From Alphaproteobacteria bacterium (GTDB lineage: Bacteria; Pseudomonadota; Alphaproteobacteria; GM7ARS4; G965262615): a stretch of 64,000 nucleotides of DNA. How positions within the stretch are numbered: the first letter of the stretch is position 1; the number at the start of each line of letters is the position of its first letter. Position numbers and translations under genes: made by a program. The notes under the pieces were generated by a model. The model saw nothing but the letters and a program-made list of their open reading frames with translations, ran no database searches and was not told the origin of the DNA. Below, piece by piece: positions 29,374 to 56,173 of this stretch. The stretch covers positions 1,115,113-1,179,112 of the forward strand of contig OZ253545.1 in NCBI GenBank assembly GCA_965262615.1. Direction: 5' to 3'.

Positions 29374-29915
29374 CTATCGTCGGCAAAGCGGTCATGATTA
29401 AAGACATAGTCGCGTCCTTCCGCCGCCGCATGGCACAAAATACACCCGGTGCGTTCGCCCTTTGCCACTCGTCCAGCCAACGCAATGGCTCTGTTGTTTT
29501 TCATCACCGTGCCATCGGGGGCATACTTGACCCAAAACCAATTGCGGTTTTCCTCATCATATCCCTTCTCACGCTGCACCATCACGGTGATTGCCTTGAG
29601 ATAGCGCGCGGGATTGGCTGACACCCGTTCCACCGTCACCCCCGCAGGACCGTAATTGCGTTTGACAAGCACCCACATTTTTTTGCCGCCAATGCTCATT
29701 TGACGCTCCAAAAACTCCAGCACAAAACCGTGTGGCTCAACGCCCTCATAGAATTTCACATGAACGGGATTATCCCCCACCAGACGCATTTTCTTCAAGC
29801 CAAACCACAAGCCTTGAGCAAAACGAATGTCATCGGACTTGCCAAACTGCTGAGCGGAAGCATCAACCGTCCATAAGAGTGCAACGGACAATGTCCATGC
29901 CCATAGCCATCTCAT
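29370..29915 (-). CDS. Periplasmic mono-haem c-type protein, cytochrome P460/c'-beta-like
   Basis: Signal peptide; about 160-aa mature protein with a single CxxCH (CILCH) near the C-terminus, as in the P460 family. Confidence 0.4.
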   Translation of the reverse strand: MRWLWAWTLSVALLWTVDASAQQFGKSDDIRFAQGLWFGLKKMRLVGDNPVHVKFYEGVEPHGFVLEFLERQMSIGGKKMWVLVKRNYGPAGVTVERVSANPARYLKAITVMVQREKGYDEENRNWFWVKYAPDGTVMKNNRAIALAGRVAKGERTGCILCHAAAEGRDYVFNHDRFADDR

Positions 29916-32677: not shown

Positions 32678-34401
32678 GAGATTCCTACCTCCTGTGGAAA
32701 AAATCTTAACGCACAGTCTATCGGATTTCCAGCCGCTTGTCCAAGCCCACAAATAGAGGCATCTCGCATGGCACTCACCAGCTGTGTGAGCAGTGGTGCG
32801 TTCCACTGATTTTTCTCCAGCAACGCCACCGCCTTTTCCGTTCCCACACGACAGGGGGTGCATTGTCCGCAGCTCTCATCTTCAAAAAAGCGCAACAGAT
32901 TGACAACCACATCGCGCACCGAATCTTTGTCAGAAAACACCACCACCGCCGCCGAGCCCAAAAAGCACCCGTGTTCCTCCAATTGACCAAAATCCAATGG
33001 AATGTCCGCCATGCTGGCAGGCAGCACCCCACCTGATGCCCCACCGGGCAGATAGCCTTTGAATTCATGTCCGTCTTCCATGCCATCACAATGCTCATGG
33101 AGCAATTCGTTCATGGTGATGCCCGCCGCCGCCACCTTAACACCGGGATTTTTCACCCTGCCCGAGACCGAAAAGGAATGAATTCCCTTGAAATCCCCCT
33201 TGCCCAAAGAGGCATACCATGACGCTCCTTTTTCCATGATGTCACGAATCCAATACACCGTCTCCACATTTTGATTGAGTGTGGGTTTGCCAAAGAGTCC
33301 CACCGTTGAAATATACGGCGGCTTGTGACGAGGCATCCCCCGCTTGCCTTCAATGCTTTCAATCATGGCGGATTCTTCGCCGCAGATATATGCTCCCGCG
33401 CCGCGCCGCACATGAATGGCGGGCAAGGACGGCAATGAGGTATTCACAACGGTCAATTCTTTCATCAGCATGTGATGAATGGCGGGATACTCATCTCGCA
33501 GATAGATATAGATGGCTTGTGCCTCCACCGCCCATGCGGCAATGAGCGCGCCCTCCAAGAAACGATGAAGATCCTTTTCCATGTAGTATTTGTCTTTGAA
33601 GGTGCCTGGCTCGCCTTCATCGGCATTGATGGTCAGCAAGCGCGGTTTGGAGGCGGCTCGCACAAATTTCCATTTTTGCGCCGCAGGAAAGCCCGCGCCG
33701 CCTTTGCCGCGCAGATTCGCCTGCCCCAGCTGTTCAATCACCTGTTCGGGATCATGTTGCCCCGCCACGCACGCCTCATACAAACGATACCCCCCCTCGC
33801 GGCGATAGATGCCAAAATCTCTGTAGGATGGCACGACAGGGGCGATGTCTTTTTTGCTGACGGTCTTTTTGATGTCCGCCAAAGTGCTGTGTGCCAAATG
33901 GTGCTGCCCCACGACCGTGACGGGAGCTTCATCGCATCGTCCCATGCAGGGAGCCGCCACCACCCGCACGGAATCATCGTTTTGCCACTGTTTTTGAGCC
34001 TCCGCCAACAGGGATGATGCTCCCCGCAACGCACAACTGATGCTGTCACACACCCGCACGGTGATGTGCGGCACGGTGGCATCATCGGCACAAATATCAA
34101 AGTGAGCGTAAAAGCTCGCCACTTCAAACACTTCGGCAAGGGGCAGACGCAAAATCTCCGCCAGTGCCACCAAATGACGATGAAACAATGCTCTTTGCGA
34201 ATCCTGCAATCGGTGCAAATACTCCACCAACAAATCTCGGCGCAAGGGCATTGCTCCTAACAGAGCGCGCACTTCCTTGAGTGATGCCTCATCGGCTTGC
34301 CGTCCCTTCGGATAAGGGACATACATGCTTTGCGGCATATTTTTGCGTCCTTCCTTCAGGGTCTTGGTGTTCATGAATTGACAATGACCCATAACCACCA
34401 T
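32674..34401 (-). CDS. Fused gamma-beta subunit of NAD-linked formate dehydrogenase (NuoE-like 2Fe-2S plus NuoF-like FMN/NADH/4Fe-4S)
   Basis: NuoE-type cysteines (CDSISC), the NuoF FMN motif GKGGAGFPAAQKW, and 4Fe-4S ESCGQCTPCR. Confidence 0.85.
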   Translation of the reverse strand: MVVMGHCQFMNTKTLKEGRKNMPQSMYVPYPKGRQADEASLKEVRALLGAMPLRRDLLVEYLHRLQDSQRALFHRHLVALAEILRLPLAEVFEVASFYAHFDICADDATVPHITVRVCDSISCALRGASSLLAEAQKQWQNDDSVRVVAAPCMGRCDEAPVTVVGQHHLAHSTLADIKKTVSKKDIAPVVPSYRDFGIYRREGGYRLYEACVAGQHDPEQVIEQLGQANLRGKGGAGFPAAQKWKFVRAASKPRLLTINADEGEPGTFKDKYYMEKDLHRFLEGALIAAWAVEAQAIYIYLRDEYPAIHHMLMKELTVVNTSLPSLPAIHVRRGAGAYICGEESAMIESIEGKRGMPRHKPPYISTVGLFGKPTLNQNVETVYWIRDIMEKGASWYASLGKGDFKGIHSFSVSGRVKNPGVKVAAAGITMNELLHEHCDGMEDGHEFKGYLPGGASGGVLPASMADIPLDFGQLEEHGCFLGSAAVVVFSDKDSVRDVVVNLLRFFEDESCGQCTPCRVGTEKAVALLEKNQWNAPLLTQLVSAMRDASICGLGQAAGNPIDCALRFFPQEVGIS

Positions 34402-34705
34402 GATTGCAAGCTCAGCTATCCGATAAAATCAGCTGAATATCGCGCAATCTTTATTGACGAGGCGAGTCTTTTGCCAGTCATGTTTTGGGATGCCTCACCT
34501 TTTGGGATGCCTCATCGGCCTGCCGTCCCTTCGGATAAGGGACATACATGCTTTGCGGCATATTTTTGCGTCCTTCCTTCAGGGTCTTGGTGTTCATGAA
34601 GCGACAATGACCCATAACCGCCATGATTGCAAGCTCAGCTATCCGATAAAATCAGCTGAATATCGCGCAATCTTTGTTGATGGGGTGAGTCTTTTGCGAG
34701 CCATG
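34283..34705 (+). repeat. Tandem duplication, period 223 bp (two ~200-bp copies, about 97% identical), covering the fdsGB 5' end and intergenic region
   Basis: GATGCCTCATCGGC(T/C)TGCCGTCCCTTCGGATAAGGGACATACATGC... recurs at 34283 and 34506. Confidence 0.9.
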
Positions 34706-35954
34706 TGTTGGCGCGCTGCGTGTGACGCTGTGCACTTTCGCCATCCCCCATGAGCAGGCTGCGTTCTGCCAGAGCCAGTTCGGCGAGTCCCATGTTGCCA
34801 TTGCGTCCTGCCGCCGTGCTGTAAAAATGCCACGCCATGATGTTGTCGGATTCCTCCACCAGCACCAATTCCAATGCCTGCAACACCAGTGGCAGCAACG
34901 ATTCATCATTCATCGCCAGTGCGGCTTGCGCCCATCCCATTAAAATGAGCGGATGATTATCGCTCAGCTCCACCGCGCGCGCATACGATATGACGGCGGC
35001 ATGAGGCTGACCGTGTTCAAACAAAATCTGCCCTCGCAGTTCGTGCAGGTATGGGTCGTTTTCTCGCCCTTGCAAAAGTCCATCAATGATTGCCAGTGCA
35101 GTGTTCACATCCCCCGCTCGGTGGTGCACAATGGCTTTGGCGTAGTGACTGCCGAAGGAGTTGGGGTGAGTGGCGTAGAAATCAAGCACTTCATTGGGGG
35201 GCAGTAAAAACCCTTTGAGTTTGGCAACCATGCGCTCATGACGCATCTCATCGTGGGGATGATGGCAGCAGTCGTGCGGTTCATGATGCAGATGCTCCGC
35301 CATGAGGCGAATGCGCTCACCACTGAGAGGGTGGGTGAGTTGATAGGGGTCTATGTCCAAGCCTTGTTCTTTTTCTGCCAGCATGGAGAGGAATGAGTAT
35401 AGCCCTCCCACCGATTGTCCGCTGTTTTGCAGATAACTGACGGCGGCTTGGTCTGCCAGCGTCTCGTTGTGACGAAATTCCTCCAGCAACAGGCGATTGC
35501 CCACATTGGGCATGGCGATGACCCCCGCCAGCCCCACATCAAACTGCCCGCCTGCCATGGCGGCGGCACTGAGCAGCATGGTCATGAGATTGAAGATGCT
35601 GGTGTCAAAGGCGGCATCCTGCAGACGCAACAAATGCCCGCCGGTGATGTGTCCGATTTCGTGCGCCAGCACCCCCTTGACCTCATCGGCATTGCGGGTG
35701 TTCATCAAAAGCCCACTGTGCAAAAACATCCGTTGCCCCTCGGTGACAAAGGCATTGATGGATGAGTCGTTCAGCACCACCATCTGCACGGTGCCGAAAT
35801 CCAGCCCGCCCGCCGCAGCCAAAGGATACGCCCAAGAGTTAAGAGTGTCTTCAATTTCAGCGTCGCGAATGATGCTCGCAGCGGGGGTTGATGACGCAAC
35901 CACGCTCACCCACGACATCAGCACAAGAAAAATAAAGCGTTTCATAAAGGTCAT
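34635..35954 (-). CDS. M48-family zinc metalloprotease with C-terminal TPR domain (BepA/YfgC-like), periplasmic
   Basis: Signal peptide, HEIGHITGGH zincin motif and C-terminal TPR-like repeats. The 3' end lies inside copy 2 of the tandem duplication. Confidence 0.8.
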   Translation of the reverse strand: MTFMKRFIFLVLMSWVSVVASSTPAASIIRDAEIEDTLNSWAYPLAAAGGLDFGTVQMVVLNDSSINAFVTEGQRMFLHSGLLMNTRNADEVKGVLAHEIGHITGGHLLRLQDAAFDTSIFNLMTMLLSAAAMAGGQFDVGLAGVIAMPNVGNRLLLEEFRHNETLADQAAVSYLQNSGQSVGGLYSFLSMLAEKEQGLDIDPYQLTHPLSGERIRLMAEHLHHEPHDCCHHPHDEMRHERMVAKLKGFLLPPNEVLDFYATHPNSFGSHYAKAIVHHRAGDVNTALAIIDGLLQGRENDPYLHELRGQILFEHGQPHAAVISYARAVELSDNHPLILMGWAQAALAMNDESLLPLVLQALELVLVEESDNIMAWHFYSTAAGRNGNMGLAELALAERSLLMGDGESAQRHTQRANTWLAKDSPHQQRLRDIQLILSDS

Positions 35955-35999: not shown

Positions 36000-37652
36000 A
36001 TGAACAACAAAAAACTCATCGCATGGATTGCCATCACCGTCATTGCCCACACGGGATGGACAATGGGCGTGGCTCATGCCGATGAAACGGTAGATTTGCA
36101 CCAATTGATGGAAGACGCTCAACAAGGCGATGCCGATGCCCAATTCTATCTTGGGTTGATGTATGGCAATGGCGCGGGTGTCACGCAGGATTATGAGGCA
36201 GGCATCTATTGGGTCACAAAAGCCGCGGAACAATGGCATGCCGATGCCCAATACGCTCTTGGGGTGTTTTATAAAAATGGCGATGGTGTGGCACAGAATT
36301 ATGAGAAAGCCGTGTATTGGTATCAAAAAGCCGCGGCGCAAGGAAATGCCGATGCCCAATACGATCTTGGGTTGATGTATGGCAAGGGCGCAGGTGTCAC
36401 GCAGGATTATGAGGCAGGCATCTATTGGTTCACAAAAGCCGCAGAGCAAAACCATGCTGATGCAATAGAAATACTCAAGGAATTAGGCATGGCTCATGAA
36501 ACGGACGAATTGCACCATTTGATGGAACGCGCCCAGCAAGGCGACTCCGTATCCCAATTCTATCTTGGGACGATGTATGAACAGGGCAGAGGTGTCTCTC
36601 GAGATGTTGGACAAGCGGTGCAATGGTATCAAAAAGCCGCCAAGCAAGGATTTGCCCAAGCCCAATACAACCTTGGGTGGATGTATGAAAATGGCACAGG
36701 TGTTCCGCAAGATGATGAACAGGCGGTAGAATGGTATCAAAAAGCCGCGGCACAAGGACTTGCCAATGCTCAAAACAATCTGGCGGAGATGTATCGCGAG
36801 GGCAGAGGTGTTCCGCAGGATGATGAGCAAGCGTTGGAATTGTATCTAAAATCCGCCGAGCAAGGATATGATCGCGCTCAAACCACTATGGGCTGGATGT
36901 ATGACAATGGCATTGGTGTTGTGCAAGATTATGAGCAAGCCGCGCAATGGTTCACAAAAGCCGCGGTGCAAGGATTTGCCCGAGCTCAAAGTAATCTTGC
37001 TATGATGTATCTTCATGGCAGAGGTGTTCCGCAGGATTATGAGCAAGCCGCGCAATGGTGGAGAAAAGCCGCAAGGCAAGGCTATGCCAAGGCTCAATTC
37101 AATCTTGGGCTGATGTATCACAATGGAGATGGGGTTGCACAGGACGATGAGCAAGCTTTGTATTGGTGGGAGAAAGCCGCAAGACAAGGAAATAAAGATG
37201 CAATAGAAGCTCTCAAAATATTAGGCATGGCTGATGAAACGGACGAATTGCACCAATTGAGAGAACGCGCCGAGCAAGGCGATGCCGATGCCCAAAACTA
37301 TCTTGGTGTGATGTATAACACTGGCATGGGTGTGACGCAGGATAAAAAAGAAGCCGTGGAATGGTTCAAAAAATCCGCCGAACAAGGAAATGCCCTCGCC
37401 CAAGCCAATCTTGGAGTGATGTATAGGGATGGGATGGGTGTCACGCAGGATGATGAGGAAGCTGTGGAATGGTGGAAAAAAGCCGCAGAGCAAGAAAATG
37501 CCGTAGCCCAATACAATCTTGCTGTGATGTATGGCAAGGGAATCGGCGTGGCACAGAGTGATGAAAAAGCCGTCTATTGGTTCACAAAAGCCGCCAAACA
37601 AGGCGATGTTGATGCAATAGAAGTTCTCAAGAAATTAGGCATCACCGACTGA
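36000..37652 (+). CDS. Secreted Sel1-like repeat protein (550 aa; three tandem modules each ending DAIE-LK-LGM)
   Basis: Signal peptide ...IAHTGWTMGVAHA and about 13 Sel1 repeats. The last module is about 95% DNA-identical to 13380..13625. Confidence 0.85.
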   Translation: MNNKKLIAWIAITVIAHTGWTMGVAHADETVDLHQLMEDAQQGDADAQFYLGLMYGNGAGVTQDYEAGIYWVTKAAEQWHADAQYALGVFYKNGDGVAQNYEKAVYWYQKAAAQGNADAQYDLGLMYGKGAGVTQDYEAGIYWFTKAAEQNHADAIEILKELGMAHETDELHHLMERAQQGDSVSQFYLGTMYEQGRGVSRDVGQAVQWYQKAAKQGFAQAQYNLGWMYENGTGVPQDDEQAVEWYQKAAAQGLANAQNNLAEMYREGRGVPQDDEQALELYLKSAEQGYDRAQTTMGWMYDNGIGVVQDYEQAAQWFTKAAVQGFARAQSNLAMMYLHGRGVPQDYEQAAQWWRKAARQGYAKAQFNLGLMYHNGDGVAQDDEQALYWWEKAARQGNKDAIEALKILGMADETDELHQLRERAEQGDADAQNYLGVMYNTGMGVTQDKKEAVEWFKKSAEQGNALAQANLGVMYRDGMGVTQDDEEAVEWWKKAAEQENAVAQYNLAVMYGKGIGVAQSDEKAVYWFTKAAKQGDVDAIEVLKKLGITD

Positions 37653-37682
37653 TTCCCCCTCGCCTTGAGGCAAGGACAGGCA

Positions 37683-38114
37683 TCAAAAAAGTGCCGTGGC
37701 AACCATTCCCAACAGAGCCACCATCACGCTCACAAGAACAACAATCACCCGCGTCGCAAAGAGATTGAAAGCCTGCAACAACACATTGATATCTTCCTTA
37801 ATTTCAGTTCGCGCCTGAGCGATTTGAGTTTCCAGTTTGGCGATTTGAGTTTCCAGTTTGGCGTTATTTTCATTATTTTCAGCTCGCGCCTGAGCGATTT
37901 GAGCTTCCAGTTTGGCGATTTGAGCTTCCAGTTTGGCGATTTTGGTCTCCAGTTTGGCGATATCTTCCTTCGTGGCAAAATTCTTGCCTTGCTCTTTGAT
38001 GGTGGCAACATCCACCTTCAGAGCAACCACATCCGCTTTGAGGGCGACCACATCATCATACAAGCCATTCGCCTTGCGATGTTCGGTTGGTTTTTGTTCC
38101 GTCTGGATAGTCAT
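37683..38114 (-). CDS. Small coiled-coil protein with C-terminal TM anchor (DUF1640/CCDC90-like, tail-anchored)
   Basis: ...ALKADVVALKVDVATIKE...FATKEDIAKLE(IAKLEAQ)n...RVIVVLVSVMVALLGMVATALF. The ATKxDL/I motif and C-terminal TM resemble DUF1640. Start set at MTIQTEQ because the ORF-track extension is the promoter. Confidence 0.55.
   Translation of the reverse strand: MTIQTEQKPTEHRKANGLYDDVVALKADVVALKVDVATIKEQGKNFATKEDIAKLETKIAKLEAQIAKLEAQIAQARAENNENNAKLETQIAKLETQIAQARTEIKEDINVLLQAFNLFATRVIVVLVSVMVALLGMVATALF
37804..37957 (-). repeat. In-frame 21-bp tandem repeats (about 5 copies; heptad IAKLE(A/T)Q) nested within a ~75-bp repeat
   Basis: GATTTGAG(T/C)TTCCAGTTTGGC repeated on the plus strand. 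Confidence 0.85.
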
Positions 38115-38183
38115 GGTGGTTAGAATATGTGCATTTGCAGGGTTTGTCAATGCCAAGATGCCTTACGGTCATTGCAGATGACC
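38115..38183 (-). promoter_or_regulatory. Conserved promoter TTGACA-N17-TATTCT-N7-ATG plus upstream palindrome GGTCATTGCAGATGACC (38167..38183)
   Basis: Promoter and palindrome are conserved upstream of 4 of the 5 DUF1640-like paralogs (41657..41735, 45649..45715, 46249..46300). Confidence 0.5.
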
Positions 38184-38294
38184 ATGAGCAAGAGAAAACA
38201 TCACTCAAAACATTGGGCATACCCAACTAATTCGCCCTCGCTCTTGCTTTTTGCCATTGGTTTTTGTATGGGTGGCGTGCCCAATGGCAATCAA

Positions 38295-39476
38295 ATGAGG
38301 ATAGCTCCATTGAATGATCGACATCTCCCGTCTCGCCGCAGTGCCATTCCCTCATTTATTGTGATGGACATGATGGCGAAGGCATCGGCACTGGAACGGC
38401 GCGGGGTGAAGGTCATGCGTTTGGAGGCGGGCGCGCCGGACACCGCTCCGCCGCCCGCCATCCTCAAACAACTGGCACACACCCTCACCAAGCGCAATTT
38501 TGGCTACACCGATTCCACCGGAACGCCCCAGCTCAAAGAACGCATTGCATGGCTCTATGGGCATCGCTATGGGCTTGAGATTGACCCATCCCGCATCGTC
38601 ATCTCCAGTGGCTCATCGGCGTGTCTGACTCTGGCACTGCTGGCGGCGTTTGAGCATGGGGATGTGATTGCTCTGCCGCGTCCGTGTTATCCCGCCTATC
38701 GCCCCATGGCGGAGGCGTTGGGTCTGCGGGTGGTGGATATGCCGCTCACGGATGAGGACGGCTGGTGTCTGACGGCGCGTCATATTGAGCAGTGTGAGAC
38801 CAAACCGAGCGGCATCATTCTCACCAATCCCGCCAACCCCACCGGCGCACTGATGGACGAACACCAACTGGCAACCATTGCTGATTATTGCCGACATAAT
38901 GGTATCCGCATCATCAGCGATGAGATTTATCACGATGTCACCGATGATGACCACACAGCTCACAGCATCCTCTCGTTTGACCCCGATGCCATCGTGACCA
39001 GTGGCTTTTCCAAGTTTTTTGCGCTGCCGGGCTGGCGTGTGGGCTGGATGATCGCGCCTGTCGCTTTTGCCTCCTCCCTGCTGGCATTACAGCAAAATCT
39101 CTATGTCGCGCCGCCCAGCGCAGGACAAGAACTCGCGATTTCCATGCTACAAGAAGAGGTTATGGACACCATGAAACACCATGTACGGCGATGGAATGAC
39201 AACCGCAATGTTTTGTTGCGGTTTATTGAGCAAAGCCCACTCAGTCTGACGGCTCAGCCGCGCGGCGGATTTTACATTTATTGCGATGCCGCCGCCGTCA
39301 CCCATGACAGCGTGGCGTGGTGTGATGAGATATTGCATCGTCATCATGTGGCACTGGCGGCGGGCGTGGATTTTGACCCCGTGGACGGTCATAAATTCGT
39401 GCGTTTTTCCTTCTGCCGACCAAACAATGAGATTACTACTGCCTGCAAGATTCTCGACAAAGTGTTTAATTCTTAA
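38295..39476 (+). CDS. Class I/II (aspartate/aromatic-type) PLP aminotransferase
   Basis: PLP-lysine motif SGFSKFFALPGWRVGW and N-terminal ...SAIPSFIVMDMMAKASALERRG. Confidence 0.8.
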   Translation: MRIAPLNDRHLPSRRSAIPSFIVMDMMAKASALERRGVKVMRLEAGAPDTAPPPAILKQLAHTLTKRNFGYTDSTGTPQLKERIAWLYGHRYGLEIDPSRIVISSGSSACLTLALLAAFEHGDVIALPRPCYPAYRPMAEALGLRVVDMPLTDEDGWCLTARHIEQCETKPSGIILTNPANPTGALMDEHQLATIADYCRHNGIRIISDEIYHDVTDDDHTAHSILSFDPDAIVTSGFSKFFALPGWRVGWMIAPVAFASSLLALQQNLYVAPPSAGQELAISMLQEEVMDTMKHHVRRWNDNRNVLLRFIEQSPLSLTAQPRGGFYIYCDAAAVTHDSVAWCDEILHRHHVALAAGVDFDPVDGHKFVRFSFCRPNNEITTACKILDKVFNS

Positions 39477-39553
39477 CCGTGAAAAAGCTGTTTTATCAGC
39501 CTCATCAGTGTGATACAATCGCGGCGGTCAATTGATGGCGCGAGGAGTTTGGT

Positions 39554-41077
39554 GTGGAAAAATTCTTTGAATACATTTTCCCAAAAAAAATCAGTACGAG
39601 GTCGCGAGTCTGTCTCTTATTCCTTGTACCCGCATTGTCCATTTTAATCCTTCTTCCATCAATTCTTGAAGCTTGGAATCAACCTCCATTGCCAAGCCAA
39701 TTTTTCTATTCTTTAATTACGGTAACAGGATTTCTGCTTTTTGCTTTGATTTTATCATTAATAAAAGATTTTGAAAAATCATCCGAGCCAACGCGTGACA
39801 TAGCTAAAGACTTACATGATATGCTTCCTGAATTGGCGTTGTATATCACCGAACAATTGGTATCGGATAACATAAAAAATATGCAAAAGAAAGAAGCAAC
39901 AAGACAATTTAATCTTGGTGTCAAACATTTATTTGGCAAGGGTGTTAAAAAAAATGCACAAAAAGCATTCCTCCACTTTGAAGCAGCCGCCCAACAAGGG
40001 GATGCCTACGCCCAATTCAATCTTGCTTTGATGTATAGGAATGGCAAAGGAGTGGCACAAAATGATAAGAAAGCCCTGTATTGGTATCAAAAAGCCGCCC
40101 AACAAGGGGATGCTAGAGCCCAATTCAATCTTGCTTGGATGTATCATGAGGGCAAAGGAGTGGCACAGAATGATGAGAAAGCCCTGTATTGGTATCAAGA
40201 ATCCGCCCAACAAGGGGATGCTAGAGCCCAATTCAATCTTGCTTTAATGTATCATGAGGGCAAAGGAGTGGCACAAAATGATGAGAAAGCCCTGTATTGG
40301 TATCAAAAAGCCGCCCAACAAGGGAATGCCAAAGCCCAATTCAATCTTGCTTGGATGTATGATGAGGGCAAAGGAGTGGCACAGAATGATGAGAAAGCTG
40401 TGTATTGGTATCAAGAATCCGCCCAGCAAGGGGATGCCAAAGCCCAATTCAATCTTGCTTGGATGTATGATGAGGGCAAAGGAGTGGCACAAAATGATAA
40501 GAAAGCACTATATTGGTATCAAGAATCCGCACAACAAGGAAGTGCCAGAGCCCAAATCAGTCTTGGGATGGCTTATGTTGGCGGAAAAGGTATTTCACAG
40601 GATTATCATGAGGCGATGCAATGGTTCAAAAAAGCCGCAGAACAAGGGAGTACCGATGCCCAAAACAATATTGGCTTTATGTATGCCACTGGCATGGGTA
40701 TTAAACCAAATGAGAAAAAAGCAGTGCATTGGCTCACAAAAGCTTCAGAGCAAGGATTTGCCATAGCCCAATTCAATCTCGCTGTGGTGTATGAAAGTGT
40801 GACACAGAATGATCAAAAAGCGAAGCACTGGTATCAAAAAGCCGTCCAGCAAGTTAGTGACGAAACCAAATTCACTCAGCAAGAAGAGCAGGAGAGGATC
40901 AAAGAAGCGGAACAAGAAGGGGATGCCAATTCCTTGTATCTTCTTGGCGTGAGATACGCCATTGGCGAAGAAGTCACGCGAGATTATGAAAAAGCGGCGC
41001 ACTGGTTCACCCAAGCATCTCAGCTGAACTTTATTCAAGCCACGCGAGCTCTTGAATTGCTGAAAAAAGTCAAATAA
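39554..41077 (+). CDS. Sel1-like repeat protein with N-terminal TM segments (AQFNLAxMYxEGKGVAQNDxKA variant)
   Basis: About 11 Sel1 repeats. Confidence 0.85.
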   Translation: MEKFFEYIFPKKISTRSRVCLLFLVPALSILILLPSILEAWNQPPLPSQFFYSLITVTGFLLFALILSLIKDFEKSSEPTRDIAKDLHDMLPELALYITEQLVSDNIKNMQKKEATRQFNLGVKHLFGKGVKKNAQKAFLHFEAAAQQGDAYAQFNLALMYRNGKGVAQNDKKALYWYQKAAQQGDARAQFNLAWMYHEGKGVAQNDEKALYWYQESAQQGDARAQFNLALMYHEGKGVAQNDEKALYWYQKAAQQGNAKAQFNLAWMYDEGKGVAQNDEKAVYWYQESAQQGDAKAQFNLAWMYDEGKGVAQNDKKALYWYQESAQQGSARAQISLGMAYVGGKGISQDYHEAMQWFKKAAEQGSTDAQNNIGFMYATGMGIKPNEKKAVHWLTKASEQGFAIAQFNLAVVYESVTQNDQKAKHWYQKAVQQVSDETKFTQQEEQERIKEAEQEGDANSLYLLGVRYAIGEEVTRDYEKAAHWFTQASQLNFIQATRALELLKKVK

Positions 41078-41101
41078 AGCTCAAACTACACGGGGTAAAC
41101 A

Positions 41102-41312
41102 ATGGACATGGCTCATACTGATTTGCAACAATTGATGGAGCGCGCTCAACAAGGCGATGCCCTCAGCCCAAAACAGTCTGGGGTGCATGTATGAACAAGG
41201 CAGAGGTGTCACGCAGGATTATGAAGAAGCCGTGCGATGGTTCAAAAAAGCCGCGAGGCAAGGAAATAAAGCTGCCATAAAATCCCTCAAAATTTTAGGC
41301 ATGACCGACTAA
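41102..41312 (+). pseudogene. Degenerate fragment of a Sel1-like repeat gene (internal stop), ending ...KILGMTD*
   Basis: MDMAHTDLQQLMERAQQGDA...(stop)...RGVTQDYEEAVRWFKKAARQGNKAAIKSLKILGMTD is homologous to the module boundaries of the 36000..37652 gene. Confidence 0.6.
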
Positions 41313-41326
41313 TTCAAGGGTTTTCG

Positions 41327-41656
41327 TCACTTCAAAATAAGTGTCACCAGAATGCCCACAAGGGACACAATCACTCCCGCCAGAGCCACAATCACTCGCG
41401 CAGCGGCGCGATTGACGGCATCCAACAACTCATTTTTCGCCTTATCAATCTTGCCATCCACGACCGATATTTTGTCCAGCAGTTCAGCTCGCAAATCGGC
41501 AACATCTTCCTTCGTGGCAAAATGATTGCACTGCTCCTTGATGGTGGCAACATCCACTTTGAGAGTCACCACATCCGCTTTGAGAGCGACCACATCATCA
41601 TGCAAGCCATTCGCACCGCGATGCTTTGGTGGTTCTTGATTCGTTTCTATCGTCAT
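41327..41656 (-). CDS. DUF1640/CCDC90-like small coiled-coil tail-anchored protein
   Basis: Paralog of 37683..38114, with the same C-terminal TM and the FATKEDVADL motif. Confidence 0.55.
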   Translation of the reverse strand: MTIETNQEPPKHRGANGLHDDVVALKADVVTLKVDVATIKEQCNHFATKEDVADLRAELLDKISVVDGKIDKAKNELLDAVNRAAARVIVALAGVIVSLVGILVTLILK

Positions 41657-41808
41657 GGTGATGAGAGTATGGGCATTTCAAGAATTTGTCAATGGCAAGA
41701 CGCATTACGATCATTGCAGATGACCATGAGGCAAGAGTCACCATCATTCAAAAAAGAGCAGTTGCAATTGCGTCTTAACTTTGCCATCCAAAAGCGGTAT
41801 AAAAGCCC

Positions 41809-42307
41809 CATGATGATTGCACGGTTGCTCGCCATCATAATGTTGCTCATGAGTGTCACCGCAACTTCCAGTCACGGCGAGATGATGCGCGTCAAAGGCA
41901 TGGGGGGAATCTTCAATTTTGCCAAGGACAATAATTTTGCCTACGGCGCGGAGGTCACCCTGCCTTCACTCTTTTTGCCTTTGGGCTTGAATTTTGATGT
42001 GGGATTTCTCGCCACCGACCGCCGCGCCGTCTACGGCTACGCCGCCATTGAACGCGCTTTTTATGTTGATGACGACTGGCGCATCATCCCCTCATTGGCG
42101 ATGGGATACTACGAACAAAAGGACGATAAAGATCTCGGATTTGAACTCAACTTCAAATCGGGCGGCGAGATTGCCTACCGCTTTGCTCACAACGCATGGG
42201 CGGGAATTTCGGCTTTTCATATCTCCAACGCCTCGCTCAGCAGTCATAATCCGGGCACGGAGCTCTTTGTCTTCACCCTCACCTACGATGTCAGTATAAT
42301 TCCATGA
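41809..42307 (+). CDS. Possible outer-membrane lipid A deacylase (PagL-like) / small beta-barrel protein
   Basis: Signal peptide, about 145-aa mature protein with alternating hydrophobic beta-strand pattern, and an FHISNAS (His-x-Ser) motif near the C-terminus. Confidence 0.35.
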
Positions 42308-43254
42308 GCGAGCGCATTCACGACTCCATCACCGACCTCATTGGCAAAACGCCTCTGTTGCGCCTCAATCGCTTTGCGCGCTTTCACCAGTGCGAGGCGG
42401 AGCTCATCGCCAAACTGGAGCTTCTCAATCCTCTTTCATCGGTGAAGGATCGCATCGGGCTTGCCATGATTGATGATGCCGTGGCAGCGGGACGCATCAC
42501 CGCAAACACCACCATCATAGAACCCACATCCGGCAACACGGGCATTGCTCTGGCATTCGTGGCAGCCGCCCGAGGGCTGAAACTCATTTTAACCATGCCC
42601 GCCAGCATGTCTGTGGAACGCCGCAAAATGCTCCAATTGCTGGGCGCACAAACCCATCTCACCGACCCCGCCCGAGGCATGAAGGGCGCGATTGAAAAAG
42701 CACACGAACTGCACAAAGAAATCAAGGATTCCATCATTTTGCAACAGTTTGAAAATCCCGCCAATCCAACCATTCATCGCCACACCACGGCGCAAGAAAT
42801 ATGGCACGATGTGGGCAGGCGGCTGGATATTTTCGTCTCGGGCGTGGGAACGGGCGGCACGGTGACCGGCGTGAGTGAGGTCATCAAAGAGCAGCACCCC
42901 GCCCTTCATGTGGTGGCGGTAGAACCCGAAGACTCCCCCGTTCTGTCGGGAGGCACGGCGGGACCCCACAAAATTCAAGGCATTGGCGCAGGCATGATTC
43001 CCAAAAATCTCAACCAACAAATGATTGATGAGGTCATCACCATCAGCAACGAGACGGCGTTTGAGACGGCGCGCACGGTGGCGCGTCTTGAGGGCTTGGC
43101 GGTAGGCATTTCATCGGGGGCGGCTCTGGCGGCGGCTTTAGAGGTGGGACAGCGAGCCCAAAACAAAGGCAAACGAATCCTTGTCATTCTGCCGTCCGCC
43201 GCCGAACGCTACCTCTCCACCGAGCTTTTTTCCGATGGCATGGATACCAAATAA
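42304..43254 (+). CDS. cysK: Cysteine synthase A (O-acetylserine sulfhydrylase)
   Basis: PLP-lysine motif SVKDRIG, GNTGIALA, and TGGT/SSGA loops. Confidence 0.9.
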   Translation: MSERIHDSITDLIGKTPLLRLNRFARFHQCEAELIAKLELLNPLSSVKDRIGLAMIDDAVAAGRITANTTIIEPTSGNTGIALAFVAAARGLKLILTMPASMSVERRKMLQLLGAQTHLTDPARGMKGAIEKAHELHKEIKDSIILQQFENPANPTIHRHTTAQEIWHDVGRRLDIFVSGVGTGGTVTGVSEVIKEQHPALHVVAVEPEDSPVLSGGTAGPHKIQGIGAGMIPKNLNQQMIDEVITISNETAFETARTVARLEGLAVGISSGAALAAALEVGQRAQNKGKRILVILPSAAERYLSTELFSDGMDTK

Positions 43255-43308
43255 CCGTGAAGAATTTTGGTATTGACAAATTCTGCAAATTCACATATTC
43301 TCACCATC

Positions 43309-43590
43309 ATGACGACAGAGACGAAGCAAAAAAAAGAATATCTCACGGTGACGGCAAAAACCTATCGCTTGAAGAGCGGTCGCGCTCTTCTCATGGTGGA
43401 TTTTACCACTCATGAAAGTGTCGCCGCCCTGCAAAGTGACGATGCTGTCAGTTTGTTGCGGGGAGATATCGCTCAACTGCGTGAAGAAATTGAGAGGGCG
43501 AAAAATGAAGTGATCTATGCCATCAATCGCGCCGCTGTGGGAGTCATTGTTTCTTGTGTGATCGTTATGGTGGCAATCATTCTTAAGTGA
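43309..43590 (+). CDS. DUF1640/CCDC90-like small coiled-coil tail-anchored protein
   Basis: Paralog. Preceded by TTGACA-N17-TATTCT-N7-ATG. Confidence 0.5.
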   Translation: MTTETKQKKEYLTVTAKTYRLKSGRALLMVDFTTHESVAALQSDDAVSLLRGDIAQLREEIERAKNEVIYAINRAAVGVIVSCVIVMVAIILK

Positions 43591-44348
43591 CCCTCTCTCG
43601 CCATGAGATGGAATTCTATGCCAGCCACATCATGCTCCCGCAGATTGGCGGCAGGGGACAAGAAAAAATCGGGCGTGCCAAAGTGCTGGTGGTGGGTGCG
43701 GGAGGCATCGGCACACCCCTCATCATCTATCTGACTACTGCGGGCGTGGGAACAATCGGCATCGCCGATGATGACACCGTTGAAACCAGCAATTTGCAAC
43801 GCCAAATTCTCTACCGCCAAAACCACATCGGCGCGCTCAAAACCACCACCGCCATTGATGAAGCACGCGCCATCAATTCCGCCGTCACCCTCATTCCTCA
43901 CCCCCAACGCATGGATGATGACACTCTTGCCCACATCCTGCCGAGCTATGACATCATTGCCGATGGCTCGGACAACATCACCACCGCTCACTGTCTCAAT
44001 AAAGCGGCGGTCAAACAGGGCAAAATCCTCATCAAGGCATCGGTGAGCGGCTGGAGCGGACAAATCACCACCATCATGGGCGGCAATACAAACGCTCCCT
44101 GCTACGCCTGCCTCTTTCCACCATCGGACACCGATGCCAACGCTCCTTCATGCGTTGAGCAAGGGGTTCTCAATATGGCGGTGTGTGTCATGGCGGGATG
44201 GCTCGGTGCGGAGGTCATCAAGTGCATTATCGGGACGGGACAATCCCTCAAAGGACGACTCCTCCTCTATGACGCGCTGCAAGCGTCCATGCACACCATC
44301 CAATACGATAAAAATCCCAGCTGCCCCGTCTGTGCCGCTAGGGTTTGA
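43587..44348 (+). CDS. ThiF/MoeB/HesA-family E1-like adenylyltransferase
   Basis: Rossmann motif VLVVGAGGIGTP, and CxxC pairs (CYAC ... CPVC). Confidence 0.8.
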   Translation: MTLSRHEMEFYASHIMLPQIGGRGQEKIGRAKVLVVGAGGIGTPLIIYLTTAGVGTIGIADDDTVETSNLQRQILYRQNHIGALKTTTAIDEARAINSAVTLIPHPQRMDDDTLAHILPSYDIIADGSDNITTAHCLNKAAVKQGKILIKASVSGWSGQITTIMGGNTNAPCYACLFPPSDTDANAPSCVEQGVLNMAVCVMAGWLGAEVIKCIIGTGQSLKGRLLLYDALQASMHTIQYDKNPSCPVCAARV

Positions 44349-44871
44349 CCTGAATGCTACAGCCCCTCGTCATGTAATAGCGCGGGCTATCATCATCGTC
44401 TCTTGCCAACAAGCCAAAGCGTTGCGGGTCATAGGCGTAGGAAATGGTCTGTTCGCGCGGGCGATAGCGATAGGGAAACTGACGAATATACATTGATTGA
44501 ATGTCATGAGCCTCTTGTTCTCGCATTGCATAGCGCACGCGCTCGCTGTAGTCACCAAAGCGTTCCTGATGCTTATTGCGGTGCTGCATATGATGCACCA
44601 GTTCATGCACCAAAATAGAGACTGCGCACACATTCATCGCCCGTCCCATATCGTCACGCAAATAAACCGTCCGCTCCTCAATGTGATAAAATGCCACCAC
44701 CGCACACCGTCGTCCCCCACACGCCATCTCTTGCAACGAATCCGATGACGCAAAAACCACCGAAGGGGTCTCCGAAGGCATGTCATAGCCAGAGACGCTC
44801 GCCACCCACAGCAATAACGAGGCAACCATATCTGTCAAAGAACTGACTCCAGAGTGAATCATGATACTCAC
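44338..44871 (-). CDS. Putative secreted HExxH zinc metallopeptidase-like protein
   Basis: N-terminal hydrophobic segment and a single HELVHHMQH motif. The family was not recognised. Confidence 0.3.
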   Translation of the reverse strand: MSIMIHSGVSSLTDMVASLLLWVASVSGYDMPSETPSVVFASSDSLQEMACGGRRCAVVAFYHIEERTVYLRDDMGRAMNVCAVSILVHELVHHMQHRNKHQERFGDYSERVRYAMREQEAHDIQSMYIRQFPYRYRPREQTISYAYDPQRFGLLARDDDDSPRYYMTRGCSIQVKP

Positions 44872-44981
44872 CTATAGTCTCAATGACAAGATGAATGAGG
44901 CATGAATTGGGAAAGAATTTCAAGCTGTGAGATTCTTGGCAAAGTGTTTAATTCTTAATGGGAATATGGTAAGCTGCCACC

Positions 44982-45352
44982 ATGAGAACCACCCGCCTTA
45001 TCACATGGATTGCCATTGTCGTCATTGCTCATACGGGCTGGATGCCGAGCGTGGCTCATGCCGAAGAAGATGCCATAGCCCAATACAATCTTGGGGTGGA
45101 TTATTACAACGACAAGGACTACCTACAAGCAGCGTATTGGTGGAAAAAAGCCGCCGAACAAGGGAATGCCAATGCTCAAACCACTCTGGCGTTGATGTAT
45201 TACGATGGCACAGGTGTCACACAGGACGGTCTGCAGGCGGCGTATTGGTTCAAAAAAGCCGCAGAACAAGGACATAAAGGGGCGATAAAAGCCCTCAAGA
45301 AGGAAATAAAGATGCGATAAAAGCCCTCAAAACATTAGGCATGACCAACTAA
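44982..45352 (+). CDS. Short secreted Sel1-like repeat protein, C-terminus disrupted by a 32-bp duplication
   Basis: Signal peptide IAHTGWMPSVAHA and 2 Sel1 repeats. The GCGATAAAAGCCCTCAA direct repeat causes a premature stop at 45320; removing the insertion restores ...KALKTLGMTN*. Confidence 0.6.
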
Positions 45353-45366
45353 TTCAAGGGGTTTTA

Positions 45367-45648
45367 TCATTTAAGAATTAGTGTTACCAGAATGCCGCCC
45401 AGAGCCACAATCACTCCCACGAGAGCCACAATCACCCGCACGGCAAAGCGATTGATGGCTTCCAACAACTCATTTTTCGCCTCAATGACATCTTTTTTGG
45501 TGGCAAAATGATTGCACCGCTCCTTGATGGTGGCAACATCCACCTTGAGATCCACCATATCATCACGCGAGCCATTGGCACCGCGATGCTTGGGTGTTTT
45601 CTGCACCTCGCGATGCTTTGGTGGTTCTTGCTGCGTTTCCATTGTCAT
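45367..45648 (-). CDS. DUF1640/CCDC90-like small coiled-coil tail-anchored protein
   Basis: Paralog with the same promoter and C-terminal TM. Confidence 0.5.
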   Translation of the reverse strand: MTMETQQEPPKHREVQKTPKHRGANGSRDDMVDLKVDVATIKERCNHFATKKDVIEAKNELLEAINRFAVRVIVALVGVIVALGGILVTLILK

Positions 45649-45735
45649 GGTGATGAGAATATGTGCGTTTGCAGGGTTTGTCAATAACAAAATTCTTCAC
45701 GGTCATTTGGCATGACCATGAGGCAAGGGTTTTCG

Positions 45736-46248
45736 TCACTTCAAAATAAGTGTCACCAAGATGCCCACAAGAGACACAATCACTCCCACAAGAGTCACAA
45801 TCACCCGCGTAGCAACGCGATTGAAAGCTTCTAACACCTCATTTTTTGCCTTCTCAATCTTGTGATCCGTGGCTGACATTTTCTCCAGCAGTTCAGCTCG
45901 CAGTTCAGCCATGTCAGCTCGCAGTTCGGCGATGTTTTCCCTATTGTCAGCTCGCAGTTCGGCGATGTTTTCCCTATTGTCAGCTCGCAGTTCGGCGATG
46001 TTTTCCTTATTGTCAGCTCGCGCCTCAGCAATTTGAGTTTCCAGCTTGGCGATTTGAGCTTCCAGTTTGGCGATTTTGGTCTCCAACTTGGCGATATCTT
46101 CCTTCGTGGCAAAATTCTTGCCTTGCTCTTTGATGGTGGCAACATCCACCTTCAGAGCGACCACATCCGCTTTGAGGGCGACCACATCATCATACAAGCC
46201 ATTCGCCTTGCGATGTTCGGTTGGTTTTTGTTCCGTCTGGATAGCCAT
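45736..46248 (-). CDS. DUF1640/CCDC90-like small coiled-coil tail-anchored protein with two in-frame repeat arrays
   Basis: Paralog. Contains (ADNRENIAELR)x3 and the IAKLE heptad array. Confidence 0.55.
   Translation of the reverse strand: MAIQTEQKPTEHRKANGLYDDVVALKADVVALKVDVATIKEQGKNFATKEDIAKLETKIAKLEAQIAKLETQIAEARADNKENIAELRADNRENIAELRADNRENIAELRADMAELRAELLEKMSATDHKIEKAKNEVLEAFNRVATRVIVTLVGVIVSLVGILVTLILK
45913..46011 (-). repeat. In-frame 33-bp tandem repeat (3 copies)
   Basis: GTCAGCTCGCAGTTCGGCGATGTTTTCCCTATT occurs 3 times on the plus strand. Confidence 0.9.
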
Positions 46249-46280
46249 AGTGGTTAGAATATGTGCATGTCAAGCGTTTG

Positions 46281-47615
46281 TCAATCACAAGATGCCTCAC
46301 GGTCATTTGGCATGAATTGGGCAAGAATTTCATGCAGCTGCTGCCACGCTTCACGCAGTGCCTGTGGTGCGATGCAATACGGTGGCATCATATAGACCAC
46401 ATTACCCAACGGACGCAGCAACAGCCCGCGCCGCAACGCCTCTTCGCCAATGGCTGTGCCAATGGTGGCGTGATAGCCTTCATCCTTGCCATCAATGGTG
46501 AAGGCGGCAATCGTTCCCATGATGCGCGGCTTGGTGATGTGAGGCAGAGTCATGATGTCTTGCATGGCGGTGTGATGAATGTGTTCTATGGCGCGAATGC
46601 GCGTCCATGTGTCGTCCGCATCAAACAGCTGCAATGATGCCAGTGCCGCGGCGCATGCCAATGGATTGGCGGTGTAGGAATGACCATGAGCAAAAAAGTG
46701 TCCCCCATCATGAGCAAAAGCCTCATAGATATGGTTCTGAATGATGGTCGCCGCAAGGGGAAGCGTGCCACCAGTCAATCCTTTGGCACAACAGAGAATG
46801 TCCGGCTGGTGTGCCAATTGGTCGCTGGCGAACAATGAGCCCAAGCGTCCAAAGGCGGTCATGACTTCGTCAAAAATAATAAGCGCATCGCTTTTGGTGC
46901 GAATCATGGCAACCGCCTCATTGAAAAAACGCCTTGAGCTCATCCGCATGCCACTCGCTCCCTGCACCAACGGCTCTAAAATGACCGCATTGAGAGTGTG
47001 CCCGTTGGTGTGCAAGTGTTCAGATAGTGTCTCAAGGGCGCGCTCTTCGGTCACGCCCATTGCGTTGTCATGCAGCCATGTCTCGGGATACGAGGTGAAA
47101 TGAAACGGATAGAGCAAGGATTCAAACCCCTCATAGAGCTGGCATGAGACCCCCGCCGCCATCGCCCCCATGGTGTCACCGTGATAGCCTCCCTCCAATG
47201 CCAGAAAGTGCTTGGGTTCTTTGCCCTTTTTGCGCCAGTAGAGCCATGCCATTTTGAGAGCAATTTCAACGGCGCACGAGCCATTATCGGAGAAAAACAC
47301 CCGCTGCAATGATGATGGTGTCACCCGCGCCAGATGCTCTGCCACCCGCACCGCGCCCTCATGAGTCACACCGGCAAACAACACATGAGACAATCGCTCA
47401 CTTTGTTTGTGAATGGCTTTCATGATGGCAGGATGACGATGACCGTGGGTCACCACCCACCACGAAGAGATGAGATCCTGATAGCCGCGATCCGTTTCAT
47501 CATAGAGAACACTGCCTTCAGCTCGCGTGATGACCAACGGCGCACCGCCCTTATCAAACGGATGCCACAAATGAGTCGCGTCTAAAGACGAAAGATTATG
47601 TGGAAACGCCATCAA
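46281..47615 (-). CDS. bioA: Adenosylmethionine-8-amino-7-oxononanoate aminotransferase
   Basis: Class-III aminotransferase with PLP-lysine motif CCAKGLTGG, in a bio operon. Confidence 0.88.
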   Translation of the reverse strand: MMAFPHNLSSLDATHLWHPFDKGGAPLVITRAEGSVLYDETDRGYQDLISSWWVVTHGHRHPAIMKAIHKQSERLSHVLFAGVTHEGAVRVAEHLARVTPSSLQRVFFSDNGSCAVEIALKMAWLYWRKKGKEPKHFLALEGGYHGDTMGAMAAGVSCQLYEGFESLLYPFHFTSYPETWLHDNAMGVTEERALETLSEHLHTNGHTLNAVILEPLVQGASGMRMSSRRFFNEAVAMIRTKSDALIIFDEVMTAFGRLGSLFASDQLAHQPDILCCAKGLTGGTLPLAATIIQNHIYEAFAHDGGHFFAHGHSYTANPLACAAALASLQLFDADDTWTRIRAIEHIHHTAMQDIMTLPHITKPRIMGTIAAFTIDGKDEGYHATIGTAIGEEALRRGLLLRPLGNVVYMMPPYCIAPQALREAWQQLHEILAQFMPNDREASCD

Positions 47616-55472: not shown

Positions 55473-55778
55473 CTAATCATCGCTGCCGCACTTGCCCTCG
55501 CCGATACAAATGGCATAGGCTGATGCGCCCACAACAATCATGGTGGGCACAGCCGATATGACCGTGGCGGCGGCATCACAGGTATCAAACTGTTTAATCA
55601 GCTGCTCCTTTGTGAACGGCGGACGACGCTTATTCTCAAGGGCATCCTTATAGCGCACCAGTTCCACCTCAAGGGCACTCTTACACGCCGAGCCATAAGG
55701 CACAAGCACCGTGGACTTGCCAACACTGCACCCCGTCAGCACAACAGACACCATCAATAAAGAAAAAATCCTCATCAT
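55473..55778 (-). CDS. Small lipoprotein (lipobox LTGC) with C-terminal hydrophobic segment; tandem paralog 1
   Basis: MMRIFSLLMVSVVLTGCSVGKSTVLVPYGSACKSALEVELVRYKDALE...; about 65% identical to the next gene. Confidence 0.55.
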   Translation of the reverse strand: MMRIFSLLMVSVVLTGCSVGKSTVLVPYGSACKSALEVELVRYKDALENKRRPPFTKEQLIKQFDTCDAAATVISAVPTMIVVGASAYAICIGEGKCGSDD

Positions 55779-56125: not shown

Positions 56126-56173
56126 AACCTTTCTCTCCTCAACTCGTAGGGTCATTGTGCCACAAATTGTCAC

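Follow-up and report, generated by a model that had tools for sequence, protein, structure and literature searches.

In-frame variation in tandem repeat number is well known in coiled-coil surface fibres, among them the streptococcal M proteins and the stalks of the trimeric autotransporter adhesins (TAAs) YadA, UspA and BadA, where high-identity tandem units with lengths divisible by three expand and contract, changing the length of the fibre while keeping the reading frame. Here we examine a comparable set of arrays in a 64-kb stretch of an assembly from an uncultured alphaproteobacterium (GCA_965262615.1, contig OZ253545.1, positions 1,115,113 to 1,179,112 of the forward strand), hereafter called the window, in which five paralogous genes found by tblastn lie within 37.6-46.3 kb. 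These arrays are likely to be in-frame minisatellites that form the stalks of a family of tail-anchored coiled-coil membrane proteins, all of them small (about 93-170 aa). Unlike M proteins and TAAs, which are exported, anchored at the surface and face host immunity, the family proteins studied here carry no export signals, a tail anchor and a cytoplasmic orientation are predicted for them, and their units are single heptads and hendecads, whereas the repeat blocks of M proteins and TAAs are longer.

The DUF1640/CCDC90-like family (Pfam PF07798), which includes human MCUR1 and CCDC90B as well as prokaryotic homologs, provides the nearest comparison at the level of protein layout. Like the window proteins, its members are small membrane proteins with an A-T-K-x-[D/E] beta-layer before the stalk and a C-terminal anchor, and the consensus of the bacterial members also contains 11-residue IAELRAELK-type stalk repeats. 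To our knowledge, the prokaryotic members of the DUF1640/MCUR1 type have no known function, and we are aware of no reports of copy-number polymorphism or multi-paralog cassettes in DUF1640. The beta-layer consensus has been given as [aliphatic]-A-T-K-[polar]-[D/E] by Hartmann et al., 2016 (PMC4786415), who place the motif of DUF1640 proteins at the start of the stalk and whose beta-layer constructs were all trimeric. Tcar0761 of Thermosinus carboxydivorans (PDB 5APZ; PMC4786415) resembles the window family in having a MATKDD-type beta-layer followed by IAKL-type heptads, but there the beta-layer nonad is repeated 14 times, whereas the window family has one beta-layer, heptads together with hendecads, and a membrane anchor. 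Braun's lipoprotein Lpp offers an analogy only: as a small coiled-coil trimer, it sets a distance in the envelope through the number of its heptads, and lends weight to the view that the length of a stalk can be a functional parameter in its own right. Lpp differs in being periplasmic, lipid-anchored, single-copy and not naturally length-polymorphic, and the Pfam LPP match (E 0.74) gave no homology to it.

Arrays were called with Tandem Repeats Finder (TRF), both on 36-48 kb and on the whole window, and the units were then read in frame on the minus strand. All arrays with a 21- or 33-bp period in the 64 kb lie inside the five paralogous genes, which we call A, B, C1, C2 and D, and the sole other short-period array has a period of 32 bp and lies inside an adjacent Sel1 gene. 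The 21-bp units encode heptads of the form IAKLExx and the 33-bp units encode hendecads, IAELRADNREN or IAQARAENNEN. In translation, the stalk of paralog A runs FATKED-IAKLETK-IAKLEAQ-IAKLEAQ-IAQARAENNEN-NAKLETQ-IAKLETQ-IAQARTE and that of paralog C1 runs FATKED-IAKLETK-IAKLEAQ-IAKLETQ-IAEARADNKEN-IAELRADNREN-IAELRADNREN-IAELRADMAEL. The original prediction, made from this DNA without database searches, had located the repeats correctly to within a few bases, and its three copies of a 33-bp unit near 45913..46011 correspond to a TRF array of 3.3 copies (45912-46021, 98%). Its count of about five heptads at 37.8 kb also stands, although not as a single run, since three heptads and two heptads are split there by one hendecad. 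Likewise, its description of the units as near-perfect at the DNA level holds for most arrays (91-100%) but not for the heptad array at 46031-46095 (81%).

One pair of hendecads is identical at 33/33 nt and one pair of heptads at 21/21 nt. Because the similarity between units reaches synonymous sites, it points to recent duplication and not to protein constraint alone. The stalk units are all 21 or 33 bp, hence multiples of three, and stand head to tail inside the open reading frames (ORFs), so that a change in copy number would alter the length of the protein and not its expression. For the same reason we ruled out a phase-variable contingency locus switched on and off by frameshift.

To compare strains, we collected related contigs by way of a 97%-identical cluster of 13 BioA sequences, bioA (46281-47615) being the gene that adjoins C1. 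Seven syntenic contigs (L004-L010) came from the long-read metagenome assembly ERZ26695794 and the Logan run SRR33343645, and in their housekeeping flanks they share 93-98% identity with the window. Whole-unit, in-frame indels occur among them within runs of identical units. In the 33-bp array, window C1 and its counterpart in L008 (L008:2351-2797) are separated by a single 66-bp gap that is exactly two IAELRADNREN units, giving proteins of 170 and 148 aa with 3.3 and 1.3 hendecads, respectively, and 97.8% identity over the remainder. The heptad array at 46033-46095 has three units in the window and in L008 and two in the same-site gene of L006, a 21-bp gap. At site B, other strains carry an extra paralog of 149/156 aa that is absent from the window; this sister paralog has three IAKLExx heptads in L008 and two in L007, L009 and L006, again a difference of one 21-bp gap in a sequence that is otherwise 98.4% identical. 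The original prediction had proposed that in-frame gain and loss of units changes the length of the coiled coil and that copy number should be compared across related genomes. Copy number is not invariant among them (L006, L008 and L007/L009), and the whole-unit gaps of 66 and 21 bp bear out the proposed change in length.

Paralog A is present in L005 as a protein that is 100% identical, with nine nucleotide differences that are all synonymous, which indicates a real coding gene under purifying selection. The other relatives differ more at this site. L007 and L009 have a different allele type (IADLRTKD...), and L011, a contig from another sample whose M48-peptidase flank is 86% identical, has an allele of 107 aa with two heptads and no hendecad, compared with 143 aa in the window; in more distant relatives the 37.8-kb array is shorter or rearranged. 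Orthologs of paralog B were found in L005, L006, L008 and L009, and paralog C2 is 99.6% identical to its L008 counterpart. We parsed 41 family proteins in all, from the window, the syntenic loci, two other genomic sites (L002 and L003) and a set of homologs (P0001-P0020). Across these, the stalk, counted from beta-layer to anchor, spans 17-117 aa and contains 0-7 heptads and 0-6 hendecads in varying order, and the modules are often paired as 18-residue super-units (7+11).

Variation is also found at scales larger than the repeat unit. The site-C gene of L006 is a mosaic that joins a site-C-like 5' end to a site-A-type 3' half and C-terminus. In the window, C1, C2 and a short Sel1 gene together make up a 1.39-kb cassette (44922-46308) flanked by a 23-bp direct repeat, which we call the C cassette. 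It is absent in L004, L005, L007, L009 and L010, and other versions of it occur in L006 and L008. At the empty sites whose junctions we compared (L004, L005 and L007), there is one copy of the 23-bp repeat and, after it, a degenerate remnant of the promoter element ahead of the next gene. Insertion of the cassette rewrites the last codons of bioA (444 aa instead of 440 aa), and the cassette boundaries have in common CCCTTGCCTCATGG(T)CAT with a hairpin whose stem is 10 bp. We therefore distinguish three layers of variation: slippage or unequal exchange of units, recombination between paralogs, and gain or loss of cassettes. The slipped-strand or recombinational origin that had been proposed for the variation thus fits the in-frame changes in unit number, while much of the variation consists instead of mosaic recombination between paralogs and of whole-cassette gain and loss. 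Paralog D, which sits between thiF and cysK, is present in every related contig and almost invariant, unlike the variable paralogs.

The coordinates of the genes, repeats and upstream elements are collected in Table 1.

Table 1. Genes, repeat units and associated elements of the coiled-coil family in the window. Positions are those of the 64-kb stretch.
Feature	Position	Strand	Basis and remarks
Paralog A, 143 aa	37683-38114	-	ORF and translation, from the ATG at 38114
Paralog B, 109 aa	41327-41656	-	tblastn; short stalk with one heptad
Paralog D, 93 aa	43309-43590	+	tblastn; divergent, without ATK motif or repeats, promoter and anchor kept
Paralog C2, 93 aa	45367-45648	-	minimal 17-aa stalk without stalk repeats; in tandem, downstream of C1
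Paralog C1, 170 aa	45736-46248	-	N-terminal short heptad helix, FATKED, 3 heptads and 3.3 hendecads, C-terminal anchor
21-bp array (A)	37819-37863	-	TRF, 2.1 copies, 100% matches
21-bp array (A)	37894-37961	-	TRF, 3.2 copies, 91% matches
75-bp higher-order repeat x2 (A), heptads and hendecad combined	37790-37938	-	TRF, 91% matches
33-bp array (C1)	45912-46021	-	TRF, 3.3 copies, 98% matches
21-bp array (C1)	46031-46095	-	TRF, 3.1 copies, 81% matches
A, three heptads IAKLETK, IAKLEAQ, IAKLEAQ	37899-37961	-	in-frame translation
A, single hendecad IAQARAENNEN (33 bp)	37866-37898	-	in-frame translation; between the two heptad runs
A, two heptads NAKLETQ, IAKLETQ	37824-37865	-	in-frame translation
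C1, three heptads IAKLETK, IAKLEAQ, IAKLETQ	46033-46095	-	in-frame translation
C1, hendecads IAEARADNKEN, IAELRADNREN, IAELRADNREN	45934-46032	-	in-frame translation
C1, partial fourth hendecad unit IAELRADMAEL	45901-45933	-	in-frame translation
C1, FATKED beta-layer motif	46096-46113	-	directly before the repeat stalk
C1, C-terminal membrane anchor	45742-45807	-	Kyte-Doolittle 19-residue maximum 2.92 at residue 150
N-terminal 21-bp repeat VVALKAD / VVALKVD / VATIKEQ	38008-38054, 41550-41596, 46142-46188	-	TRF
Membrane-anchor 21-bp tandem duplication VTLVGVI / VSLVGIL (C1)	45764-45804	-	TRF
Membrane-anchor 21-bp tandem duplication VALVGVI / VALGGIL	45401-45442	-	TRF
Upstream element, ~80 bp, common to the five paralogs	38115-38200, 41657-41740, 43230-43308, 45649-45735, 46249-46330		
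Promoter-like TTGACA-N17-TATTCT (C1)	46256-46284	-	ends 7 nt before the ATG
Further TTGACA-N17-TATTCT copies	45656-45684 (-), 43273-43301 (+), 41664-41692 (-), 38122-38150 (-)		
23-bp direct repeat GAAATTCTTGCCCAATTCATGCC	46309-46331	-	edge of the C cassette nearer to bioA
Second copy of the 23-bp direct repeat	44899-44921	-	1 mismatch; distal edge of the cassette

The layout predicted for each protein comprises a disordered N-terminus, a short heptad helix, an A-T-K-x-D beta-layer, a stalk of 7-residue IAKLExx and 11-residue IAxxRAxNxxN modules, and one C-terminal transmembrane helix. Common to the paralogs are the N-terminus M(T/A)IQTEQKPTEHRKANGLYDDVVALKADVVALKVDVATIKEQGKNFATKED, a variable middle and a C-terminal hydrophobic helix ending ...RVIVALVGVIVALGGILVTLILK. 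An AlphaFold2 model (predicted local distance difference test score 85) has a helix at residues 11-42, a break at 43-48 (GKNFAT) and a single long helix at 49-169, and the break coincides with the beta-layer motif. In an alignment of 28 family sequences A47, K49 and D51 do not vary, and F46, T48 and E50 hardly vary; in an alignment of 22 sequences F46, too, is invariant. Tandem 21-bp repeats occur in the N-terminal helix and the anchor, where the original prediction had listed none, as well as in the stalk, and many members of the 28-sequence alignment are missing one N-terminal heptad. It looks as if heptad-sized duplications have built the entire gene, N-terminal helix, stalk and anchor alike.

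The arrays had been described as lying in DUF1640-like genes. Against PF07798, C1 scores 21.0 bits and D 16.4 bits, with a cut-off of 33.5 bits, and Pfam gave no PF07798 match for the remaining three paralogs; NCBIfam added no specific family. Pfam and NCBIfam together returned dozens of sub-threshold coiled-coil matches (to FlxA, apolipoprotein, SMC and others) that we treated as compositional. We took the same view of FlxA for paralog A, which passes its cut-off (29.5 against 26.3 bits) yet matches over the heptad repeats only. When PDB sequences were searched with a family profile, the best match was 5apz (Tcar0761, E 6.5e-4), followed by a weak match to 6h9l (E 0.04). Comparison with bacterial PF07798 proteins by hhalign gave a probability of 98.7%, with an alignment that begins at the ATK motif and covers the stalk only. 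The beta-layer motif stands directly before the first heptad, with Phe as its first residue and hence not strictly aliphatic, and is missing from paralog D; a single C-terminal transmembrane anchor, as in DUF1640, was found by Kyte-Doolittle analysis. The head consensus of bacterial DUF1640 proteins, DTL..L..AG....QAEA, has no counterpart by hhalign, alignment or AlphaFold2, and a heptad helix of about 30 residues takes its place.

The label DUF1640-like is thus a fair one, given the ATK beta-layer, the C-terminal anchor and the profile match, with the reservation that the family falls below the Pfam cut-off and lacks the canonical N-terminal head. Because the Pfam scores are sub-threshold and the head is missing while the ATK motif and the anchor are shared, we file the family, on sequence grounds, as a narrow, lineage-specific, headless offshoot of the DUF1640/MCUR1-CCDC90B kind, and not as a bona fide Pfam member. 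Its known distribution is small. When the repeat-poor paralog B was searched exhaustively with phmmer against 1.84 billion cluster representatives, six proteins matched at E<=1e-10. The best match of C1 in the protein collections is at most 54% identical, the CysK of the window has no identical entry there, and a scan of GTDB species-representative genomes with C1 gave one distant match, in a Binataceae genome, at 25% identity. No relatives of C1 were found by tblastn in the phage (50,697 genomes) or plasmid collections. A phage protein family without assigned function, PHROG 9415 (168 positions), matches C1 nearly end to end at E 4.5e-12, a score that composition may inflate. We also considered a known defence system and rejected it, as PADLOC gave weak coiled-coil matches only, to SMC-like arms (LmuB, JetC and PbeC).

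Each family gene in the window appears to carry its own promoter. The sequence TTGACA-N17-TATTCT occurs five times in the 64 kb, upstream of family genes only and in each case with its end 7 nt from the ATG, where none would be expected by chance, and a promoter scan scored the family element at 10/12 matches. In the upstream element that contains it, a palindrome, CATGGTCAT-N5-ATGACCGTG, comes first and the promoter-like sequence second; the palindrome corresponds to a 10-bp RNA stem (z = -4.2 in the C1-C2 intergenic copy). The TTG start that an ORF finder assigns to paralog A, at 38156, falls within the promoter. A Shine-Dalgarno sequence is absent from the upstream element of the family genes, and the arrangement suggests, as read from sequence, that the family mRNAs are leaderless with a shared regulator or terminator. 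The element is not a known RNA family, with no Rfam match over 36000-47000 at E<=0.1. A nearby conserved gene of 177 aa (44338-44871), which encodes an HExxH motif (VHELVHH) and whose ortholog in L010 has a weak DUF6647 Pfam mark, has a promoter, TTGTCA-N17-TATCAT, that resembles the family element.

How the stalks lie with respect to the membrane bears on what their length might do. The anchor occupies the very C-terminus, where the Kyte-Doolittle maxima over 19 residues are 2.8-2.9 and fall within the last ~22 residues; Arg residues precede it, and no more than one Lys follows. No other hydrophobic segment was found in the paralogs by this measure (N-terminal maximum 1.34), the family proteins have no signal peptide, and Pfam and NCBIfam gave no YadA-anchor, beta-barrel or cell-wall anchor domain in the paralogs. 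Since a signal peptide is lacking and the sole transmembrane segment is C-terminal with Arg on its N-side, the proteins are probably tail-anchored with the N-terminus inside, so that the coiled coil would face the cytoplasm. MCUR1 has been proposed to meet MCU on the matrix side (PMC7279490), and a cytoplasm-facing coiled coil would, by analogy, agree with the matrix-facing coiled coil of MCUR1.

We propose that units are gained and lost by replication slippage or by unequal recombination between direct repeats. Neighbouring units are near-identical at the DNA level, their length is a multiple of three, and the gains and losses of whole units keep the reading frame and the local register of the coiled coil as the stalk grows or shrinks. 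The hydrophobic seam would be preserved by heptads, with I at a and L at d, as well as by hendecads, with I at a, L/A at d and N at h. The rise of a coiled coil is about 0.15 nm per residue. At this rate one heptad would add about 1.0 nm and one hendecad about 1.6 nm, the stalk of window C1 would be about 3.3 nm longer than that of the L008 allele, and the family would range from roughly 2.5 to 17 nm. On a coarser scale, paralogs swap modules to give mosaic alleles, and promoter-gene cassettes are inserted, deleted or exchanged at conserved boundaries, leaving each strain with its own set of stalk lengths. Because the published beta-layer constructs are all trimeric, we picture the products as putative alpha/beta coiled-coil trimers that reach into the cytoplasm from the inner membrane. 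The length of the stalk probably defines a distance or valency for a partner.

Several observations weigh against this account of the arrays as in-frame minisatellites of tail-anchored coiled coils. The clean unit indels are few, and the contigs in which they occur are all metagenomic, with a coverage of 2-10x. No change in copy number separates the 37.8-kb array from that of L005, which alone among the close strains has the same allele, so turnover is not fast at every array. Slippage, unequal crossing-over and gene conversion are not separable with these data, coiled-coil composition inflates the scores from hhalign and the HMM searches, the match to DUF1640 is below the Pfam threshold, and the trimeric state, the cytoplasmic topology and the effect of length on function are points that we infer. 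The low coverage and the static site-A array would also fit a simpler explanation, in which the periodicity is merely that of any coiled-coil sequence and the differences in copy number are assembly artefacts. We regard this as highly improbable: protein constraint does not explain units that are identical at synonymous positions, the gaps are exact in-frame multiples of the unit in independent contigs and at three arrays, and members from other samples (ERZ23497010 and ERZ23496358) show further module counts. A more serious alternative, which we hold to be possible while not favouring it, is that the length differences stem mainly from homologous recombination or gene conversion among the paralogs together with cassette exchange, with slippage minor and the tandem units by-products of shuffling. 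The mosaic L006 gene and the different site-A allele type of L007 and L009 speak for it, as do a module order that differs among members beyond module number and cassettes bounded by conserved sequences and direct repeats. Set against these, the three cleanest differences are exact one- or two-unit gaps that fall within runs of identical units and separate alleles that are nearly the same elsewhere. Such gaps are characteristic of slippage or unequal exchange within an array, for which no paralog donor is needed; the two processes are not mutually exclusive.

The original prediction had a different biological setting in mind, the surface or stalk length variation of host-associated bacteria. 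Under that reading the proteins would be surface stalks whose length variation is antigenic or adhesive, as in trimeric autotransporter adhesins or M proteins. The variation is indeed in-frame and strain-specific, and the beta-layer motif also occurs in TAA stalks (PMC4786415). The neighbouring genes encode Sel1-repeat proteins with signal peptides, a feature that, together with the abundance of Sel1 genes, is weak at most as a hint of host association. Sel1 proteins are common among eukaryote-associated bacteria. A surface location is nevertheless quite unlikely in our judgement, as the proteins have neither a signal peptide nor an N-terminal hydrophobic segment, beta-barrel or cell-wall anchor, their sole transmembrane segment sits at the C-terminal end with positive charges on its N-side, and the coiled coil of the nearest characterised relatives is on the matrix side, the equivalent of the cytoplasm. 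Host association likewise found no support: the organism belongs to an uncultured lineage, and its LeuRS and BioA are ~50-55% identical at best to named sequences (LeuRS only ~55%), all from Alphaproteobacteria (Stellaceae, Rhodospirillales and Magnetococcales).

The window holds further repeats, the most extensive of which belong to Sel1 genes. At least 14 arrays of 108-bp Sel1 units occur at 905-6915, 12202-17272, 20513-21739, 36130-37603, 39985-40794 and 44982-45320, and several of the Sel1-repeat genes, which are unusually numerous in the window, carry signal peptides. Those beside the coiled-coil paralogs vary in length or presence, with 550, 507 and 112 aa in the window and 446, 535, 651, 402 or 478 aa in related strains. 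We rejected a fixed two-gene module that pairs each family member with a Sel1 gene, as the members at L002 and L003 have no adjacent Sel1 gene and the site-A gene of L011 has none either. The 32-bp tandem duplication noted above (45268-45330) lies at the 3' end of the short Sel1 gene 44982-45320; its unit is not a multiple of three, and it shifts the frame so that the protein ends in ...KEIKMR* in place of the family-typical ...LKTLGMTN*. Two other tandem duplications are unrelated to the coiled-coil arrays, one of 223 bp x1.9 (34283-34711, 94%) between the NuoF-like and M48 peptidase genes and one of 72 bp x2.1 (24902-25053, 96%) beside a tRNA-Leu gene.

Beside ftsZ (56174-57646), the region 55473-56173 on the minus strand contains two small tandem paralogous lipoprotein-like genes with a signal peptide and a Cys lipobox (...LTGCSVGKSTVLVP...). 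At the equivalent position after ftsZ, the number of small genes in related contigs is between two and five and their size varies (roughly 31-119 aa), so that this may be another cluster of variable copy number. A formate dehydrogenase alpha subunit and a NuoF-like partner are encoded at 29912-34401 of the window, and a set of tetrahydromethanopterin-type C1-transfer genes lies next to the family member on L002 (ctg497398 of ERZ26695794, 11704-18511). Judging from these genes, there are hints of C1 metabolism in this uncultured lineage.

The mechanism that we propose for the arrays is conventional. What is new is the class of protein in which it is found, tiny, tail-anchored and DUF1640-like, likely at the cytoplasmic face of the inner membrane, built of single heptad and hendecad units and encoded in multi-copy cassettes that bear their own promoters. 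A bolder extension, which we think unlikely, is that the five genes are a dedicated diversity-generating cassette system, made up of self-contained and probably leaderless promoter-gene modules that are shuffled between fixed sites under diversifying selection, often beside equally variable periplasmic Sel1 genes, with each product a trimeric cytoplasm-facing 'ruler' tuned in steps of 1.0 and 1.6 nm. On that reading the stalks might, for example, act against phage as decoys close to the membrane or as exclusion factors, or be spacers for an intracellular structure, and, if true, this would be the first length variation driven by a variable number of tandem repeats in an intracellular bacterial scaffold instead of a surface protein. 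Independently of it, the comparison documents that cassettes turn over between strains of an alphaproteobacterium-like lineage that is uncultured and branches deeply. The natural alleles provide a series of stalks from 17 to 117 residues in exact heptad and hendecad steps, which could be used to probe the role of stalk length in DUF1640-type proteins and is also suited to the study of mixed 7- and 11-residue periodicity after a beta-layer.

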